In this document: in pieces, positions 6,381-60,861 of the stretch
Numbering within the stretch: the first letter of the stretch is position 1
How the letters are laid out: each line of letters starts with the position of its first letter
Origin: Sphyrna mokarran
Taxonomy: Eukaryota
Reading direction: 5' to 3'
Assembly: GCA_024679065.1 (NCBI GenBank)
Contig: JAGIQG010000007.1
Location: 74,338,001 to 74,402,000, forward strand
Length of the DNA stretch: 64,000 nucleotides
Made by a program: the position numbers and the translations under genes
Notes under the pieces: model-generated
Seen by the model: the letters and a program-made list of their open reading frames with translations, nothing else
Databases searched by the model: none
Told to the model about the DNA's origin: nothing

Positions 6381-6866
6381 ACCTATGTCACAACCAATAA
6401 CCTCAATACTCTGGTATGGGAATGAAACAGCAATGGTCTTTATTTCTTAAATAACCTCCACTAGACAAAAACTTGTGAAATTTTGGGTGATGAAATAATC
6501 AAGCTATGTTTTATAACAGGCCATTAAGAGTTGAATTGCACCTTGATGTCATGATTACCAAATGCCAAAATATCTAACAATGTGGACATGCAAGTTGTCA
6601 ATATCTTAGGAAAAATAGTTTATCTTAAATATAAAGAATATGTTCCCTAATCACCACAGCAGACTAGAATGTTTTCCAATTAAGTAATAAAAAACAGTGA
6701 CAGAAACTGTGTAGGCCACTATCCATGCCTGTTTGAGGTTTGTTGTATTAAACCACCAATCACATGCATTAAAAAAAAAACCTGGTTTCACACCATACTA
6801 TATTTTAACACTTGACCAAAAACATACCATTTCGTCTTTGCTAATTGCTTATTTCTAACCACATAC

Positions 6867-7004
6867 CCCCATGCAATGTATGGCTCTGCAATACGGAGCA
6901 TGTTGATTGAAGCCTTATTCAGTTTCACAAACACTCCATTGAAGATCTGACGCAGTCGTAGAAGCTGAAGCACCTTACGAACTTTAGGGCTAACACCATT
7001 GATG
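6867..7004 (-). CDS. RPL7: RPL7 coding exon 4 (138 nt)
   Basis: [46 protein letters not shown] (uL30 domain); cacag acceptor, GTATGT donor. Confidence 0.97.
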
Positions 7005-7152
7005 CTGTGAACCAAGGACAGAAATTAACAACATAGATAAAGGAATATTCTTTTAAAAGTAGTTGTTTATTTGCTGTCAATTTGTAATGGCTTGAAAAAA
7101 AATCAGATTAACCCATCATTACACTGATGAATAACCCTGCATTTCTACTTAC

Positions 7153-10312: not shown

Positions 10313-10762
10313 ATGAACATCGCGGCCGAGTTTTTCGTTGTCACTTTCAAAGTGCTGTGGGCTTTCGTCCTGGCCGCCGCCAGATGGCTGATCAAGCCCA
10401 AGGAGAAGAGCGTGTGCGACCAGGTGTGCCTGATCACGGGAGCTGGCAGCGGGCTGGGCCGCCTCTTCGCGCTGGAGTTCGCCAAGAGGAACGCCAGCCT
10501 GGTACTGTGGGATATCAACCGGGAGAGTAACGAGGAGACGGCCGAGAAGGTCCGGCAGCTGGGCGCCCGGGTCTACACTTACACTTGCGACGTGAGTAAA
10601 AGAAGTAGTGTGTACCGGACGGCCGATCTGGTGAGGAGGGAGATCGGAGATGTGACTGTGCTGGTCAATAACGCAGGTGTGGTATCCGGACACCATCTCC
10701 TCGAGTGTCCCGATGAACTTATCGAGAGGACCATGATGGTCAACTGCCACGCTCACTTTTGG
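10313..10762 (+). CDS. RDH10: Retinol dehydrogenase 10 (SDR16C family), coding exon 1 (150 codons)
   Basis: Kozak context gccagccATG; [26 protein letters not shown]...TGAGSGLG (TGxxxGxG)...NNAG...NCHAHFW; GTGAGT donor. Confidence 0.97.
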
Positions 10763-19270: not shown

Positions 19271-19358
19271 CAAGACTGCAAGAAACTATGAAGGTCTGTG
19301 AACATTGCATTATGTTCTAGGCTATGTTCACAGACCTTCATAGTTTCTTGCAGTCTTG
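19271..19358. repeat. Perfect 35-bp inverted repeat with an 18-nt loop
   Basis: 19271-19305 is the exact reverse complement of 19324-19358. Confidence 0.95.
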
Positions 19359-19409
19359 ATCCGAGCAGGAGAAGTACCAATCTGTGATACATCTGGAAAA
19401 GATAGTTGC

Positions 19410-19626
19410 CTCACTAAGAGTCTGGCACCACCAATTTTAAATCCAACTGATTTATTTGATAGTAAATCTGCTAGCTTTTGGCGTTTGTGCCTTCGTCATT
19501 CACCTGACAAAGGCACAAATGCTGAAAGCTAGCAGATTTACTATCAAATAAATCAGTTGGATTTAAAATTGGTGGTGCCAGACTCTTACTGCGTTTACCC
19601 CAGTCCAATGCTGGCATCTCTACATC
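19410..19626 (+). mobile_element. Penelope-type hairpin insertion with a hammerhead core (family A)
   Basis: 84-bp arms (19415-19498 / 19505-19588); tail ccagtccaatgctggcatctctacatc; TSD AAAGATAGTTGC at 19398-19409 and 19627-19638. Confidence 0.85.
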
Positions 19627-22600
19627 AAAGATAGTTGCGCCCTAGAAACAATGTCATAGCAGATGTACTGGCTTCCTTAAATCTGAGAAAGTAGAGGTAT
19701 TGGTGGGCATTCTCAACTATAGCATCAGCAAGAGGGACCAGGACAGGTGATTGGTGATCTGGAAATCTAGAAACTTGAAGATCTCAATCGTTTCTACTTC
19801 TTCATCATTGGTGTAGACAGGGGCATGTTCTCCACTATGCTACTTGTTGAGTAGTGCCATGGGATTTTGCATCCAAATGAACAAGGAGACAAGATCCAAA
19901 AATACAGAAAATGACTGAACTGCAAAGTGGCAGCTTATACAGTCAAATTCACAGTTAGACGGAGCTTACCTGTTTTATGCATTGGTTAAGAATTGTGCTC
20001 GAGGATTTTCCTGAAACGGACTGAAGATTTTAATCTTGGTCTGGTTTTGGCTAACAAGTGGAATATTGTTGGGCATTGGTTATATTGAGCTAGTAATCAT
20101 GAGATCTTGCAGTTAAGATTTTAAATCTATAAGTAAGAAAAATGCCTGGTTTTAGCAATTAGTTGAAGAAAAATATAATTTGCTTACACATCTCTTCAAG
20201 GAGATTGCCATTCTCAGACTGCAGTTTCAGTTTAACTAACTTGGTTTAACTTTTTTGGACTAATACTAACTTTTTTTGTGTAAAACATCTTGCAGTGAGT
20301 GACTCAAGAAGGATTATCACAACTTCTGAGGCCACTGTAGATACAATCAATATCATCCATGCCAGCAGTGTAGCTGTATCCTAAGAATTTTTTAAATTTG
20401 GAATGAAGTACTGTAATACCTTCGAGTACCCAAATGAATCCCTGCCTTGAGAGGAGTAAAATAGCTGCTAGGATCAAAAATGCTCTCCACTGTCTTAGTT
20501 TGCCAGTACCACTAAGATAGTCATTGTACTGTGGCATGTAATATTGGTAATTTAGTACATATGACTAAACCTGATTTGTGAACTGCTTAAACTTGATGCA
20601 AGTTTGAAAGGAGCTTTCTCCTAGGGTTGTGCATATCCACCACGGTGTGAATTAGGGATGCGAACCATTTTTGCTATTTGGTACAAACCAGTATTTTGCC
20701 AACATAACACTGAAGTGACCAGAAAGAGAATTTTGTTGGAATGCTCTAGAAAAATCTGTTTGGAATTCTCTGCTTTAATGGTAAATGTATGCAATAATCC
20801 CTTCCCTTTTGAAGAATGTTACAATAAACAAACTCTACAATCAACTGCCAGAATTTCAGACAGACTCTTATTATGGAAGATTAAGAGGATTATCCAATGT
20901 TGCAGTTCCCTTGATCACTGTACCATCTCCACAAGAAGCGGATCAAAGGATCTTGTCAACTAATCAGATTTTAAATCTTATTTATGTGCTTTGTGTGAAT
21001 TTGGAGAACTTGAGTAACTTTTTTCCCTATTTTTGTTCCAGAAATCTAGATGTGAAACCATTAAATTCAATTTGTGCAGTATTGGCATGCAAGAATCAAG
21101 GATCTACTATGAATCTTCTAACTGATTTTTAAAATATTCGTGGTGTAGTTTCTCTTGTTTTCAAATATGGAGTAGCTGGAGCATGTTATTTCAGTCAAAT
21201 TCGTAAAATGTTGTCACATGCAACTGGTTTCAGAAACCAAAATGTAAATTTTACACTAACTTTTGTGCTCAACCACAGGATTTTAAGGTGAGATTCCATC
21301 GACATCAAGCTCTTTTGTATGAAGGAAAAGCAGGTAGTCACTTGCTATAGATCTTCGTAAATTAGAAATACCATAGATGTGCTGGAATTCACACCCATAG
21401 TGAGCATTAACTGTCAGTATTAAAGATGGTGTACAGCTTGGCACTTGCACTCAGTTGTCTCAAATGTAGCATACTTTGGCCATATTTCACATGTAAAAAT
21501 GAAATTTCATGACATAGTGCAAAGTGTATTGGCAAATGGATGCTTAACACGGGGGGGAGTGGGAGTGCTGTGTGGAGAGAGAATGCATTAATTTTATTAA
21601 GTTGTCACTACCTTCACAGGATTCAGTGAGAAATAATTGTACCAATAACAAATGGATTTTGTTCTTTCTACAAAAACAAATTCTGATATCTATACTGCAA
21701 TACTGGATATAGTAGAAAACATGAGGTAGTGGTCTAATTTATATTTTATGCTTCTGCATTTGTGTATTTCTCTGATTTTAAAATTATTTCTATTAGCATG
21801 TCGGGTTTTAGTAAAAAGGAGCACTTTTTTACTATCGAACAGAAGATTGGATCATTTCAAGCTCTTGCTAACTTATCCAGACAATTTAATTAATGCTGTA
21901 ATTTAATGCACTTTCTTTTGCAATGTTACAAAGTACCTTGCAACATGGCAAAAAAAATATGATCTAAGGAGAGCAGGGAGTATGTGCAACATTTAACAGT
22001 GGCACAGCTGGGATCCATAAATGCTACTATATTGGATCTTGCTAAGGGCTAATTAATTATCTTGTGTAAACTAAGTATGGTATAGAAAAGATAAGGGTGA
22101 CAAAATTGCTGGTGATTTTTAATGGAAGAATGTACAGATGGGAATCACGAATTTTATCACCAATTGTTTGGATGTGAACTATTTAGACTTGAATTTTTTA
22201 AGAATAAGTAAAGATTATTCTACATTTCTAAACATCTAATAGCTAGATAATGCAATTCCAATCTTGCTGTTTAGTTTTTATAAGCTGTATTCTGTAAATG
22301 TTTCACAGCTTTTTAAATGTGTAGGTTATACATGACATTATTTCTGATTAGGGTAGGTTTTTCAGTCTGCCAAGATTTTGTGCCCTGGTAATGAGAGAAC
22401 TGAATGGTCTGTTACTAAATTCCTGTTATCCTTCATGTCTGCGTGAGGAGGCACAGATTGCTACCTGGAATGAGCTATCCTTTCTGCCTGCCAAGTAATG
22501 TTGTAACTTCCACTTTGAATAAGAAATCAAACCTTTGACTTTTCACTCAAACACTGGCACTGAACACAAGCTGCAACTGTTGAAGGGGAGCATTGTGTTT

Positions 22601-26494: not shown

Positions 26495-27493
26495 GTAGAG
26501 TACAAGAGCTGGCCTTTAATGTTGCAGTTGTATAAAACATTGGTTAGACCTCATTTGGAATACTGCGTCCAGTTCTGATCGCCTTACTACCGGAAGGACG
26601 TGGAGACTCTGGAGAGAGTGTAGAAGAGGTTTACCAGGGTGCTGCCTCCTATGGAAGGTCTGAGTTATGAGGAGACGTTGGGCAAATTGGGACTGTTTTC
26701 CTTAGACGTAGACTTAGAGATCTAATAGAGGTGTACAAGATTGAGGGGTATAGATAGAGTAAACAGGGTTAAGCTTTTTCCTAGGATGGACTCGAATAGC
26801 ACGAGGGGTCACGGGCTTAGGATGAGGGAGGTAAGGTATAATTTGGATGCTAGATGGAGTTTTTTCACAGAGGGTGGTGGGGCTATGGAATGCGCTGCCA
26901 AGTAAAGTGGTGGAGGCAGGTACTCTGGCGTTATTTAAGAAATACTTAGATGGGCACATGAACAGAATGGGAATGGAGGGGTATAGAAAACTGATTTAAA
27001 ATAGGATCATGAGCCTTGGGAGTCCCTGGGAAGTGTGTAAATAGATGATGATATTGATGTACTTGTTTTTATCCTACAGGTGCTTTGGTCCACCTTGTTG
27101 TCTAACAAGGGGCATACACGCAATGGATCATGAGAAGGCTGCTCTTGGATTTTTTTTCGAGAGTATCCTAGTGCTTCACATTGTTAGTGTACGCTTGACC
27201 TGGACCATTTGATGGGTGACATGACAGCTCAGTGACTATTGCTGTGCTGTGCAGATACATGGATTTGGGCCTGTGTCTGTGGGAGTTTGCGCATTCTCCT
27301 CGTGATTGCGTGGGTTTTTTCCGGTTTCCTCCCACATTCCAAAGATGTGCTCTTAGGCTAATTGGCAAAACAAATTCTCCCTAAATTGTCTGAAATTTGG
27401 TTTTTAATCTATAAACAGGGATCGCAGGTAGAGGTGGCGGTGCGGGCTCGTTGGGTCAAAGGGCCTGTTTCCTGTGCTGTTTTGTTCTTGTTC
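26495..27493 (+). mobile_element. 5'-truncated CR1 LINE with a long 3' UTR containing a V-SINE body (copy 1)
   Basis: EYKS..LMLQLYKTLVRPHLEYCVQF motif; V core at ~27270-27360; colinear with 58348-59370. Confidence 0.9.
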
Positions 27494-27894: not shown

Positions 27895-28057
27895 CAGTCA
27901 TGATGTAAAGATGCCGGCGTTGGATTGGGGTGGTAAGAACTCAGTAAGAATTTAGCAACACCAATTATTAATCCAACCGATTTATTTGATTGAAAGCTCG
28001 CGGATTTACTATCAAATAAATCGGTTGGATTAATAATTGGTGTTGCTAAATTCTTAC
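27895..28057 (-). mobile_element. Penelope-type hairpin insertion (family A, internally deleted)
   Basis: Perfect 47-bp arms (27944-27990 / 28011-28057); antisense tail at 27901-27930; TSD AGGATTCCAATC at 27883-27894 and 28058-28069. Confidence 0.85.
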
Positions 28058-28559
28058 AGGATTCCAATCTGGCAGCTTTTGTTAACTTTGGGTCTAGGAA
28101 CCTCAGTGGAGAGAGAAACAGTCCATATGACTCCTTCAGAGCATGGGTGGGATTCTTGGGCATTTCATGCCAGCAAGATTCTCTGGTCCTACTAATGAAT
28201 GCAAATTTGGCCAACTACCAAGTTTTCTGCCCTTACTGATAGTGGAGGTGAATTGTCTCAATTATGGAATGGATCATGAGGAAAAGCTGGGCAGGTGAGG
28301 CTTCAATCCATTGGACTTGATTGAAATATAAGATTGAGTGGGCTTTACAAAGTGGATGTGGCAAGGATGTTTCCTCTGTATCTGGATCAAGAGATCACCT
28401 GTACTCTAATATATTTTCTCGAGGGTTGAATCTTTGGAATCCTCTTTCTCAAAGGTGGAAGCTGAGATTCTCCTAAGGCAGTGAAAGGTTATTGGGTTAA
28501 AAAGCATGAATGGGGAGCTGAGGTTAAAATTAGAGCAGATATGAGTGGCTGTTTCCTCA

Positions 28560-44484: not shown

Positions 44485-44583
44485 ACTGCCAAGGCATTTC
44501 TTCCCAAGATGCTGGAAATGAACCATGGACATATTGTGACAGTGGCAAGTTCCTTAGGGTTGTTCAGCACTGCTGGTGTTGAG
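44485..44583 (+). CDS. RDH10: RDH10 coding exon 2 (99 nt)
   Basis: [33 protein letters not shown]; tcag acceptor, GTTAGT donor. Confidence 0.97.
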
Positions 44584-49475: not shown

Positions 49476-49621
49476 GATTACTGTGCAAGCAAATTTGGAG
49501 CAATAGGATTTCATGAATCCTTGAGCCATGAGTTGAAGGCTTCAGAGAAAGATGGGATCAAGATGACACTTGTTTGTCCGTATTTAGTGGACACCGGTAT
49601 GTTTCGTGGCTGCAGAATAAG
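49476..49621 (+). CDS. RDH10: RDH10 coding exon 3 (146 nt), contains the catalytic YxxxK
   Basis: [49 protein letters not shown]; ttag acceptor, GTGAGG donor. Confidence 0.97.
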
Positions 49622-50887: not shown

Positions 50888-51655
50888 AGAACATAGAACA
50901 ATACAGCACAGAACAGGCCCTTCGGCCTTCGATGTTGTGCCGACCAAAATAAAAAGCAATGCCCCTCCTAACTAAACCATTCCCTTCTCTTCCATATACT
51001 TATCAACTAACCTCTTAAACGCCACCAAACTTGGCGCATCTACAACAGCTGCAGGCAGGGCATTCCACTCCCTAATCACTCTTTGAGTAAAGAACCTACC
51101 TCTGATATCCGTCCTATAACTCATACCCCTTAATTTAAAGCTGTGTCCCCTCGTGCTAGCTTTCTCCATCCTAGGAAAAAGGCTATCACTGTCCACCCTA
51201 TCTAAACCTCTAATCATCTTATATGCTTCAATAAGATCCCCTCTTAGCCGCCTCCTTTCTAACGAAAACAACCTCAAATCCTTCAACCTCTCTTCATAGG
51301 ACCTGCCCTCCATACCAGGCAACATCCTGGTAAACCTCCTCTGTACCCTCTCCAATGCCTCCACATCTTTCTTATAATGTGGGGACCAGAACTGCACACA
51401 ATACTCCAAGTGCGGCCGCACTAGAGTTTTGTACAGTTGCAACATGATGCTGCGGCTCCTAAATTCAATCCCCCTACCAATAAAAGCTAAGACTCCATAT
51501 GCCTTCTTAACAACTTTATCCACTTGACTGCCTACTTTCAGGGATCTATTGACACATACACCAAGATCCTTCACTTCCTCAACACTATTAAGAGCCCTAC
51601 CATTAGCCCTATACTCTACACATTTATTGTTCCTGCCAAAGTGCATTACCTCACA
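50888..51655 (-). mobile_element. Young 5'-truncated CR1 LINE with an uninterrupted ORF2 C-terminus
   Basis: CEVMHFGR...KDLGV...LYKTLVRPHLEYCVQFWSP...FFTQRVIREWNALP to the stop at 50972; short 3' UTR. Confidence 0.95.
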
Positions 51656-51685
51656 ATGCACTTGAGGTAATGTGAGGTAATTCTC

Positions 51686-51963
51686 TATAGAATCCCTACA
51701 ATGTAGGAAAGGGCCATTTCGTCCATCAGGCCTGTACTGACAACAATCCCTTGTATTTGCCCTGCTTATCTCCCTAACACTAAGGTTCATTGGCCATGCT
51801 CATTTGCCCCAAACGTGCATATATTTGAAATGTGGGAGGAAACTGGAGCGCCTGGAGGAAACCCACACAAATATGGGGAGAACATGCCAACTCCATACAG
51901 TGACCCAAGCTGGGAAACAAACTCTGGTTCTTGATGCTGAGGCAGCAATGCTAACACTGCCAT
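51686..51963 (-). mobile_element. V-SINE (HE1-like)
   Basis: Antisense head and V core. Confidence 0.8.
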
Positions 51964-53899: not shown

Positions 53900-55340
53900 G
53901 GTTCCTAGAATCTGGTTTCTGTCCCTACTGCAATATAGAACTGGCTTTTATCGAAATCACAGTTGATATTATGTAACTGTGAATAAGAAACTATCCCTCG
54001 TTCTTTCCCTGTCTGCAAACTTTGAAATGGGTGACATTATCTTCCTCCAACACCTTTCCACTGTTATCCAGTTGGGTGGAACTGCACTTGCCCTCTTCAG
54101 TCTAAACTTAGTAAGAAGTTTTACAACACCAGGTTAAAGTCCAACAGCTTTATTTGATAGAAAAGCCACTAGCTTTCAGAGCACTTGCTGTTTATGGATA
54201 TTGATCACCTGACGAAGCAGTGAGTACTCAACGCTAGTGGCTTTTGCTACCAAATAAACCTGTTGGACTTTAACCTGGTGATGTGAGACTTATTTTGTTT
54301 TCACCAGTCCAATGCTGGCATCTCCACATCACATCAAGTCTAATCATAGCCAGAGGGTCAATTTCATTGATTTTCCTTCCTGCTCCTGCACTGTTACTGC
54401 AGAGTATAAAACTATGTTGGATAATCTCAGATTCAACAGATGCTACCAGATCCAGCATTTTCTGTTTATTTCAGAATTGCAGCATTTTATTATTACCTTG
54501 AGTGGGCCAAGGGGCACCCCAGTCTCTCATCATGCCACTTGGTTATGATATCCAAAGAGTGTTATTTTTCACATTGATGCTGACAATCCCCAACTATGTG
54601 TCACTGCCATCCCTTGACACCTCAACTGTCTCTTTATTGTCAGATTACTTATCAAAAATCTGTATTGAATAATAGAGATTTCCTCACTTAATATTTGGAT
54701 GACAAAAGCTTTGTCCATGCCATGAAAGCTGTATTCTAGTCACCACCTCCATCTCTCATCCTGGGAACTATGTTGTGTTGAACCAAACTGCTGGCAAGCA
54801 TTTCATATTTGACCACAAGGAACTTACATCCATGTTACTCCCATTAATAAGACCATCTATTTTCAACTCTGACATTGCCTGACTTCATGTTGGTACAGAA
54901 GCTTTCGTTTGTGGCTTTGTTATTTCTAAACTTGACTATTCCAACATGCTGCTGGCTAGTTTCATGAACTCTGCTCTCCATAAACCAAGGTTATCCAAAA
55001 CTTCCAGTATCTTTGCCTCCACTAGCTCTGTTCATCCATTTGGAAGTCAGTGTAGGTCAATCAGTAGTACTTTAGTTTTAATTTTTGTTTTCAAATCCTT
55101 ACATGGCCTTGCCACCTCTCTGCTTATTGAATTTGAATGTTTTTCACCATCTGTAATTGTAATTGTGCCATCACTGTTGGCTGTCTAGGCCCTTTGCTCT
55201 GGAATTCCCTCAAAATCTCATCTTTCCTCTTTTAAGGTGCTCCTTAAATCCATCTCTTCGATCAAACTTTTGGTCATCTGCCTTATTACCTGTCTTTATG
55301 TATAACGCTACTTTGAAGTGCCTTGAAATATACATTAAAA
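53900..55340 (+). mobile_element. Decayed L2-type LINE, interrupted by Penelope-type elements
   Basis: LSANF..GD.(LSAAFDTVDH-like), DADNPQL (YADDTQL-like) and FVISKLDYSNMLLA motifs. Confidence 0.7.
54112..54336 (+). mobile_element. Penelope-type hairpin insertion with a hammerhead core (family A, second subfamily)
   Basis: Imperfect arms ~54112-54190 / 54215-54292; CAC-CTGACGA at 54206-54215; same tail as the 19410 copy; degraded TSD agtctaaacttag / agtctaatcatag. Confidence 0.8.
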
Positions 55341-55821: not shown

Positions 55822-55953
55822 GAAAGAATTTGAGCCATTCCTTCCACCTTTGAAACCAGAATACTGTGTGAAAGAAGCAATGAGAGCCATCCTCACAGAC
55901 CAACCAATGATTTGTACACCTCGACTAATGTATACAGTAACATTCATGAAAAG
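55822..55953 (+). CDS. RDH10: RDH10 coding exon 4 (132 nt)
   Basis: [44 protein letters not shown]; gcag acceptor, GTAAGT donor. Confidence 0.97.
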
Positions 55954-58347: not shown

Positions 58348-59370
58348 GAAGAACAAAACAGCACGGGAAACAGGCCCACCGGCCCAACGAGCCCGCGCCG
58401 CCACCCCGACGTTCCCATCTCCACCCACGATCCCTGTCCATGTTCATAGATCAGTGGATTTAAAAACCAAATTTGAGACAATTTAGGGAGAATTTGTTTT
58501 GCCAATTAGCCTAAGAGCACATCTTTGGAATGTGGGATGAAACCGGAGCACCTGGAGAAAACCCACACAAGCATGGGGAGAATGCGCAAACTCCCACAGA
58601 CACAGGCCCAAATCCATGTATCTGCACAGCACAGCGATAGTCACTGAGCTGTCATGTTGCCCATCAGAAGGTCCAGGTCAAGCGCGCACGAACAACGTGA
58701 AGCACTAGGATACTCAAAAGATCCAAGAGCAGTCCTCTCTCGACCCATCGCGTGTATGCCCCTCGTTAGACAACAAGGTGGACCAAAGTACCTGTAGGAT
58801 TAAAAACAAATACATCAATATTATCCATCATCTATTTACTCACTTTCCAGGAACTCCCAAGGCTCGTGATCCCTATTTTAAATCAGTTTTCTATACCCCT
58901 CCATTCCTATTCTGTTCATGTGCCCATTTAAGTATTTCTTAAATAACTCCAGAGTATCTGCCTCCACCACTTTACTTGGCAGCGCATTCCATACCCCCAC
59001 CACCCTCTGTGGGGAAAAAAACTCCCTCTAGCATCCAAATTATACCTTACCTCCTCACCCTAAGCCCGTGACCCCTCGTGCTATTTGAGTCCATCCTAGG
59101 AAAAAGCTTAACCCTGTTTACTCTATCAATCCTCTTCAAAATCTTGTACACCTCTATCAGATCTCCTCTAAGTCTACGTCTTTCTAAGGAAAACAGTCCC
59201 AATTTGCCTAATCTCTCCTCGTAACTCAGACCTTCCATACCAGGCAGCATCCTGGTAAACCTCCTCTGCACTCTCTTCAGAGTCTCCACGTCCTTCCGGT
59301 AGTAAGGTGACCAGAACTGGACGCAGTATTCCAAATAAGGTCTAACCAACGTTTTATACAACTGCAACAT
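58348..59370 (-). mobile_element. 5'-truncated CR1 LINE with a V-SINE-containing 3' UTR (copy 2)
   Basis: ORF 59047-59370 MLQLYKTLVRPYLEYCVQFWSP...; reverse-complement colinear with 26519-27493. Confidence 0.92.
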
Positions 59371-60737
59371 GTTCCATATCAGATTTTTCCTTGCTGTTCT
59401 CCAGTACTAATTTAAATCTTGTGATATGATCATCTACACAAATATTTCCTTACAAACACTATCTGTGGCCCACCTCACTTTCAGCATCAAATCCAGCAAT
59501 GTTTTCTTTCCAGTTGGGCTGAGAGCATAACAGATCAAGGAAGTTCACCTGAGCACAGTACTGAAATTCCTCCTTCAATCCTTTTATCCCAATCAGTATT
59601 TGGGTAATTAGTGAAGTCTTCCAACATGGCCACATTGTACATCTTGCACATCTGATTCCCTAGTTCTCTCACTATTTGGAGGCCTACAGGATATCCCAGA
59701 TAGCATGATTTTGCCTTTTCTTTTTTGCTGCCCCCTTCAAGGGCATCTCTGCTTTCCAACACTGTTGTCCCTGATCAGTACTGCCACCCCTCTTTTCTCC
59801 CTTCTGTACTCTTTTCTGAACACTCTTTATAGTGCATTAAGTACCTCTTCTCCATTTTAAGCCACACTTCCATTTTTTGCCATGATATTGTACTCCCATA
59901 CTTCTATTAGTGCATGTAGCTCACCATCCTTGTGTTTACATGTGTGCTTTGAATCCTGTACTTGCATTCCTTGTATTAGTCTGCTTGTATCTAATAGGGA
60001 GCTGCTCCCTTCTGTATTGTCTAGCTTTATGCACCTCATTTCTATTGCCATATGCTGGTACCCATCCCCTTGCTAATTTTGTTTAAGCACTCCACAATCA
60101 CATCTCCCCATAAAGACACTGGTCCCAGTCCTGTTGAGATGCAACACACCTCTTTGAATAGGCACCCTCAGTCCATGAATTAATCCCAAGAATCTGAAGT
60201 CTCCTCTCAACCATGCATTGATCCAGATTGTTGCTGCAGCAACAGACTCATCAGATTGGCTGAAGGATCACCTTAGGAAATCCCTCTAAAGTGGGACTTC
60301 CTTCCCAAGTGAGAACATAAATCCCACTTCATATTCATTTGTGTTCTGAAAAATTCAGGCCATGGTAATTTTGTATTTTTGTAGTTGAGGGCATCCATTT
60401 TTTTATACATGTTCCATCATTATCTGAAGAGGGAATGTTACTCATCATTAAGTAATCATATCCATCTTTGGAGGCAGTTTGCTTCTCAGTATCGTAATGG
60501 AGAGAACACAAAATTTCTTGTCCTGTTTGTAACTAGTTTGTACCTTCATTCCAGTGTTCCCCTTTGTCTAGAATTTTCTTTTTATCCATTTAGGATCCTA
60601 CATATTTAATCTGACCTAAGTCATTCTGTGTGCATGCTCAATCTGGATCATCTGGTATCTAGCCCAGCTATTGCATTTTTTATGCTTGAATAACTTAAAC
60701 AAAATCTCTAAAAATAAAACATTTTTTTCTATTTCAG

Positions 60738-60861
60738 CATTATGCCATGGGAAGCTGTCGTTTGTATGTACCGTTTTTTGGGAGCAGATAAGTGCATGTA
60801 TCCATTCATTGCTGAGCGAAAACAGGCTTTAAACAACAATGAAGCCAAAAATGAAATCTAG
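60738..60861 (+). CDS. RDH10: RDH10 last coding exon (124 nt including TAG)
   Basis: [40 protein letters not shown]; the five exons total 951 nt = 316 aa plus stop. Confidence 0.97.

Follow-up and report, generated by a model that had tools for sequence, protein, structure and literature searches.

An insert of 217 bp in an intron of a dehydrogenase gene of Sphyrna mokarran is, at a probability of roughly 0.88, the shortest form of EN+ Penelope-like insertion: a tailed sense copy joined head-to-head to an inverted tail-less copy within a 12-bp target-site duplication (TSD), which likely arose in one target-primed reverse-transcription event and has likely been dead since. Its sequence is that of the pLTR of a 3.1-kb element with an open reading frame (ORF) for a reverse transcriptase (RT) and, at the C-terminus, a GIY-YIG domain, and its layout is the full-length layout with the ORF left out. 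The insert is of a known kind: hammerhead motif, inverted layout and tail have all been published before for Penelope-like elements.

In the window (the whole stretch of 64,000 nucleotides that was analysed), the insert occupies positions 19410-19626 and is flanked on both sides by an exact 12-bp TSD. Recomputation confirmed the insert length of 217 bp, the 84-bp arms and the exact 12-bp TSD given in a preliminary description of this DNA. The features of the insert, with signed positions relative to C3 of its hammerhead motif, are:

19398..19409, no strand: left TSD AAAGATAGTTGC, an exact repeat of 19627-19638
19627..19638, no strand: right TSD, the first A of which is alternatively the A of the element's ATG
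19410..19498, - strand: inverted tail-less pLTR-end copy, from ~+90 back to +1 (arm alignment and family positions)
19496..19626, + strand: sense pLTR-end copy of a Penelope-like element of the EN+ type, beginning at -8 and including the tail (92-93% identity to the pLTRs of the full-length copy L080)
19496..19498, no strand: 3-nt microhomology TCA at the inversion junction, the last bases of the inverted arm being the first bases of the sense arm (-8..-6)
19547..19552, + strand: AATAAA hexamer, conserved in the family (read from the sequence)
19595..19626, + strand: unpaired 'tail' of ~32 nt, directly followed by the ATG of the element's ORF in ORF-bearing copies

Base pairing between the two arms (19415-19498 and 19505-19588) spans 84 bp, of which 83 bp were aligned and T19415/A19588 adjoin, with four mismatches; the fold energy of the hairpin is -148.4 kcal/mol (z -21.5), equalled by none of 200 shuffled sequences. 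The mismatches, at 19509, 19520, 19523 and 19524, are transitions at CpG sites as previously proposed, but at three sites rather than four; three are changes of the right arm and one of the left. Some decay is common to both arms and is therefore invisible when the arms are compared. The AATAAA hexamer is a possible polyadenylation signal. Such hairpins resemble microRNA precursors in Rfam, with scores below threshold, and also look like MITEs.

The genome searched for relatives comprises 2.77 Gb. With the insert as query, 4535 first-look candidates were obtained and 40 scored; the best 30 relatives possess the same layout and the same tail end, and 20 of these 30 have an exact flanking repeat of at least 10 bp. 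The tail pattern has 11,892 exact matches genome-wide, a lower bound for the number of tail copies, and none in the control. The tail-only sample consists of 240 loci (232 unique) that were first among the matches listed and are weighted towards CpG-decayed tails. Of 19 pattern matches that extend upstream of the motif, three have additional unique sequence in common and two continue into an open GIY-YIG-like frame that ends ~210 nt before the hammerhead core. Pfam RVT_1 was matched in two of the three frames scanned (E 6.5e-10 and 1.1e-9), Pfam GIY-YIG was above cutoff in two of six frames and below cutoff in P0001, and the top Atlas cluster is GIY-YIG (0.96). The longer copies carry a DKG motif, and P0001 and L083 a C-x4-C-x2-C linker. 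In the accessible text of PMC8557442, DKG together with a linker of the CX4CX2C type (CX2-5CXXC before the nuclease) marks Neptune and Nematis; such a linker is absent from Penelope/Poseidon, in contrast to the parent element of the window family. Judged from its sequence, the parent's linker has the CX2-5CXXC form of the Neptune clade, but Nematis shares this form.

The full-length copy L080 opens with an inverted tail-less piece of 639 bp, followed by the remnant of a 5' pLTR that begins ~7 nt ahead of C3; next come the tail and the ATG with its ORF, and a tailed 3' pLTR stands last. The right arm and tail of the window insert are 92-93% identical to both of its pLTRs. An inverted tail-less 3' piece is found at the 5' end of all four long loci, none of which has an unbroken ORF, and copy lengths form a continuum up to full length. 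The Penelope origin that had been suggested for the insert is thereby upheld, the pLTR being tied to an RT and GIY-YIG ORF. Related sequence was found in contigs from other data sets, one of four being without cover. Two loci of 3.9 kb (L055 and L056, on contigs C917, of 38.7 kb, and C889) are identical and are likely an assembly duplicate.

The accessible portions of PMC8557442 and PMC3846280 describe a pLTR, an adjacent inverted 5'-truncated copy, a tail of 30-40 bp and a variable TSD in EN+ Penelope-like elements. As far as these portions go, insertions of Penelope/Poseidon and Neptune share with the window insert the head-to-head tailed and tail-less copies and the TSD of variable length, and share with its family a tail that runs into the ORF start and a parent element with RT, DKG and C-terminal GIY-YIG. 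The window insert differs in that its units are of only ~130 nt and 90 nt, with no coding sequence past the start codon region, and TSDs of the family centre on 12-14 bp, compared with 8-10 bp in the rotifer examples.

Of the 232 tail-anchored copies, 93 were found to have an adjacent inverted arm; 64 of these 93 hairpins have the outer end of that arm at +85..+97, which is the stop site of tail-less sense copies. TSDs of 9-17 bp and variable sequence flank 56 of 86 hairpins (none of 86 mismatched controls), 41 of the 56 being 12-14 bp long. The 3' ends of copies extend 0-12 nt into the ORF start. Both arms of a hairpin carry the same subfamily letters and then decay independently: arm-to-arm gene conversion, considered on account of variants shared in the window copy, was discarded as a general process when 100 hairpins showed 10 rare variants shared and 66 and 68 private to one arm. 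Arms from RNAs of two subfamilies are likewise not supported, the diagnostic columns, among those listed, rarely differing between arms. At family position +68 (the region of 19572 in the window), a G→A difference between arms that is outside CpG occurs in 18 of ~100 hairpins, as frequently as at a CpG. The TCA junction of the window copy is also present in L002, L016 and L019 and, on another subfamily background, in L126. L105, L167 and L172 have 100-300 nt between an upstream inverted arm and the sense arm, and the unrelated sequence in this gap was possibly captured during insertion.

Hairpins of the window class were likely formed anew at each landing. The nuclease would make a staggered cut, 12 nt apart, and each target strand would prime cDNA on the element RNA, one at the tail end (~+123 from C3) and the other at the tail-less site (~+90); both cDNAs would stop beside the ribozyme and be joined at the TCA microhomology. 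A hand count of 84 hairpins gave 32 whose tail-less arm extends further 5' than the tailed arm by more than 10 nt, 12 with the reverse, and 40 in which the two arms are within 10 nt of each other. Fold-back of a tailed cDNA cannot yield the class of 32, and a tail-less cDNA gains no tail by folding, so that across the hairpins two RNA-primed cDNAs appear likelier than simple fold-back, although later deletion could mimic some of the asymmetric junctions. In the accessible text of PMC11167929 (Frangieh et al. 2024), the anole element PAc (a Poseidon of Anolis carolinensis) has two RT start sites in vitro, which delimit the tail, and both target strands are extended. PAc has in common with the window family a similar distance from ribozyme to tail end and, on the proposed insertion route, the two RT start sites, the extension of both target strands and an insertion that needs no cleavage.

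For the window copy taken singly, with arm ends at -8 and +1, a fold-back fits as well as two primings: the first cDNA would fold back at the TCA/TGA micro-palindrome to give the inverted arm, which would be trimmed at +90. As an account of the formation step alone, such folding is possible, on the doubtful side. It would fit the near-perfect palindromic centres of L253, L137 and L201, the sharing of subfamily letters by the arms of one hairpin, and the coincidence of inner arm ends, 26 of 84 hairpins having theirs no more than 5 nt apart compared with 6.8 when permuted; the end-caller itself doubles such coincidences (7% to 14.5%), leaving an approximately two-fold excess. Self-priming at palindromes has also been proposed for rotifer Penelope in the portion of PMC3846280 that was accessible. 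However, matched inner ends would also be given by one RNA with a fixed 5' end, spacers reach 44 nt, the fixed outer end at +85..+97 would have to be explained separately, and the inverted arm is the longer on the inside in the 32 hairpins noted above.

The inner ends of copies accumulate just upstream of the ribozyme. At -15..-1 of C3, 55 of the 215 inner ends that extend to the bin fall there, compared with 14 of 229 at 0..+14 and 10 of 139 at -45..-31 (Fisher p 2e-10 for a bin that was chosen after looking), and the window copy (-8) falls in this peak. Simulated uniform truncation, with random flanks or inverted arms, gave flat end calls. No sharp peak was found at the predicted cut (+28) among the sampled copies. 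An apparent peak at +33/+34 from the first BLAST pass is partly an alignment effect of subfamily divergence; profile and simulation leave a broad shoulder at +30..+44 (33 of 286 ends, compared with 12 of 298 in the adjoining lower bin), which is seen among hairpins (16 of 76) and is missing where no arm was called (3 of 124). ORF-bearing copies end in the -15..-1 bin in 3 of 29 cases, compared with 34 of 159 (p 0.21), and most of them reach further upstream. Short copies for which no arm was called give no independent check, since none of 18 passed the TSD threshold and at least three are missed hairpins.

The letters at the pile-up presumably resemble an initiator element. Penelope transcription starts inside the pLTR, according to the accessible text of PMC2377424. 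These two observations make run-off at the 5' end of the RNA the leading guess for what the pile-up marks, against which the ends of the ORF-bearing copies count. A tentative and rather unlikely extension is that the short hairpins record insertion in vivo: both target strands would prime on one RNA, at its pair of internal start sites, and each cDNA would run off at the 5' end of that RNA, the transcription start, 5-10 nt upstream of an uncleaved ribozyme. The end pile-up upstream of the core, and not at the cleavage site, in the 232 copies may be a new result, together with the further reach of the tail-less arm in 32 of 84 hairpins: in the literature covered, to which most subscription journals and Repbase (which may file the family) did not belong, neither the family nor the pile-up was found described.

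The ribozyme motif of the sense arm is numbered (C3, G8, C11.1 and so on) by the hammerhead consensus, and its parts in the window are:

19498..19537, + strand: decayed minimal type I hammerhead motif (family comparison and exact-match counts)
19498-19503 with 19532-19537, + strand: stem I, ATTCAC with GCAGAT, the second pair broken by G2.2→A
19504-19510, + strand: core CUGACAA, with G8→A at 19509, followed by an extra A at 19511
19512-19514/19521-19523, + strand: stem II, with C11.1→U
19524-19527, + strand: GAAA
19527-19530, + strand: palindromic AGCU, followed by A17 at 19531
19531/19532, + strand: predicted cut (from the hammerhead consensus)

Stem I, omitted from the preliminary description, is weak in the subfamily and further broken in the window copy. 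The catalytic core is intact on neither arm of the window copy: the sense arm carries G8→A together with C11.1→U, and the remnant on the antisense arm is without C3 and carries G12→A. Changes at G8 generally abolish hammerhead cleavage. The substitution G8C abolishes cleavage by the anole ribozyme in the accessible text of PMC11167929. The ribozyme of the window copy is likely dead by CpG decay at G8 (G8→A in the sense arm), in agreement with the inactivation by CpG decay that had been thought probable. In folding calculations, stem I and stem II have pair probabilities of 0.0 in the window insert; for three relatives the value of stem II is likewise 0.0. Full pairing between the ribozyme arm and its antisense counterpart is predicted also for copies whose core is intact. 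Within the host pre-mRNA, the ribozyme arm would thus be duplexed and unable to fold.

The hammerhead that had been rebuilt from the arm mismatches occurs verbatim 727 times in the genome in an exact-match search, with none in the control, and its unchanged presence indicates that the reconstruction and its CpG state are right. Motif statistics are from the 112 of 153 copies reaching stem I that could be parsed (41 unparsed copies were dropped), by a pattern that itself selects for the core; 53 of these 112 retain CUGANGA and GAAA with G10.1-C11.1 intact. Pair 2 of stem II (45 G-C, 39 A-U, 26 G-U) is paired in 110 of 112 copies compared with 94.6 in shuffles, and pair 3, which is C-G, G-C or A-U among subfamilies, in 109 compared with 84.7, these counts being of related sequences and not of independent events. 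The extra A is present in 111 and the palindromic AGCU in 109 of the 112. Stem I pairs 1, 2 and 4-6 are formed in 99-105 copies; pair 3, a C·A mismatch in the subfamily of the window copy, is formed in 86 of 112 compared with 81.4 in shuffles, which is no excess (120 of 2000 shuffles reach 86). The same subfamily has A at position 17 (13 of 112 parsed copies). By its sequence, the family motif is thus recognizable as a minimal, dimer-type type I hammerhead whose stem II covaries between subfamilies. The parsed copies bear out the minimal type I hammerhead with palindromic AGCU of the preliminary description, whose term 'canonical' does not apply to this minimal dimer-type variant without an Rfam match: the Rfam covariance models, when run, detected no hammerhead at E <= 10 in the window or in the intact natural copies L052 and L069. 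Because these intact copies are likewise missed, the Rfam negative is uninformative on decay. The ribozyme would matter only in the RNA of the parent element, as a dimer through AGCU.

The minimal hammerheads (min-HHR) of metazoan Penelope-like element (PLE) pLTRs, as presented in the accessible text of PMC4209133 (Cervera and de la Peña 2014), resemble the family motif in their type I order, an extra nucleotide between 9 and 10.1, the G10.1-C11.1 pair, a palindromic 15.1-16.1 with no real helix III, and subfamilies with compensatory changes; they too are mostly dispersed single motifs, with opposite-strand pairs that the same text attributes to truncated copies. They show low activity even as dimers. 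Helix II is of 3-5 bp in the window family, compared with 7-8 bp in the Schistosoma families, and the window subfamily is distinguished by A at position 17 and the stem I mismatch. No minimal hammerhead of a cartilaginous fish was found in that text, the supplements of which, or those of a bioRxiv preprint, may list some. The ORF of PAc starts at stem II of the ribozyme (PMC11167929, accessible text), whereas the ATG of the window family follows the tail.

The host gene encodes a short-chain dehydrogenase on the + strand (Pfam adh_short, E 1.2e-24), presumably RDH10:

10313-10762, 44485-44583, 49476-49621, 55822-55953 and 60738-60861, + strand: dehydrogenase exons

The insert lies after the first coding exon, within the intron 10763-44484 (33.7 kb), and the ribozyme arm and the gene are both on the + strand, so the sense orientation in the host pre-mRNA assigned earlier stands. 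The first coding exon encodes 150 residues in one piece; human RDH10 is assumed to have an intron inside the stretch that matches 10313-10762. Two more hairpins of the superfamily are present in the gene. One (27901-28066) has its tail on the - strand and starts just before GAAA, without CUGANGA; the other (54103-54331, + strand) belongs to a subfamily that has diverged further and whose stem II is longer. The Penelope insert is at the edge of an older, different repeat. A second hairpin, of 38 bp (19271-19358) and 40 nt to the left, is a local inversion within this repeat; it has 208 candidates, and its best other copies match the right part only. Upstream of the gene, an open frame on the - strand (6788-7024) presumably resembles a ribosomal protein L7-type exon. 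Fragments of LINE reverse-transcriptase C-termini, presumably CR1-like, are found on the - strand at 50972-51799 and 59047-59406, and 26519-27489 and 58349-59370 are inverted repeat copies of ~1 kb, 31 kb apart, with 87-98% identity.

The preliminary description took the insert for a non-coding, retrozyme-like derivative, and a non-autonomous element of retrozyme or SINE type that propagates itself, with the Penelope protein copying it as one unit, would account for the high copy number and for the recurrence of one junction in several close relatives. In their accessible portions, PMC3846280 reports movement in trans of pLTR-bounded sequences, and PMC7229834 and bioRxiv 10.64898/2026.07.22.740005 describe animal non-LTR retrozymes that are, like the window insert, short, non-coding, derived from PLE pLTRs (a derivation given by the preprint) and equipped with a type I hammerhead. 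In contrast to those head-to-tail tandems, which have at least two same-strand ribozymes and circular RNAs, the window insert is a single head-to-head unit with its ribozyme paired to antisense. Two same-strand ribozyme units within 829 nt were found in only 3 of the 232 loci, junctions are diverse, the TCA junction occurs on different subfamily backgrounds (L016 compared with L002; L126), the motif is predicted to be sequestered in the duplex, and lengths are continuous up to full-length copies. Not being tandem, having variable junctions and with its motif apparently locked in duplex, the hairpin is improbable as a self-propagating element. An origin as a MITE of a cut-and-paste DNA transposon, suggested by the long inverted arms and the TSD, can practically be dismissed: the right arm is not terminal and is followed by a 32-nt unpaired tail, the TSD, of 9-17 bp in the family, has no fixed length or sequence, unlike that of a fixed-TSD MITE family, and the insert has the terminal sequence of an RT/GIY-YIG element. 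Very improbable, too, is a co-opted intronic ribozyme or structured RNA that regulates the dehydrogenase pre-mRNA. The sense orientation within the intron would suit such a role, and a stable 84-bp duplex could serve as an editing or dicing substrate; against it, the motif has G8→A, C11.1→U and a decayed stem I, its decay is like that of other copies, and of the two further family hairpins in the gene one is in the opposite orientation.

The single locus, a repeat copy that is likely dead and lies in a 34-kb intron, matters little. Such hairpins call for caution in annotation, as they mimic microRNA precursors (below the Rfam threshold) and MITEs. The family, with at least 11,892 tail copies, is a large natural record of Penelope-like insertion. 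If the pile-up is the 5' end of the RNA and the arms are two primings, these copies would amount to an in vivo test of the internal-initiation model, and ribozyme cleavage would not be needed for the template. If the run-off reading is true, ordinary pLTR transcripts would yield mainly 130-nt ribozyme-bearing stubs from a template that is used uncut; the many solitary minimal hammerheads scattered through animal genomes would then be accounted for.
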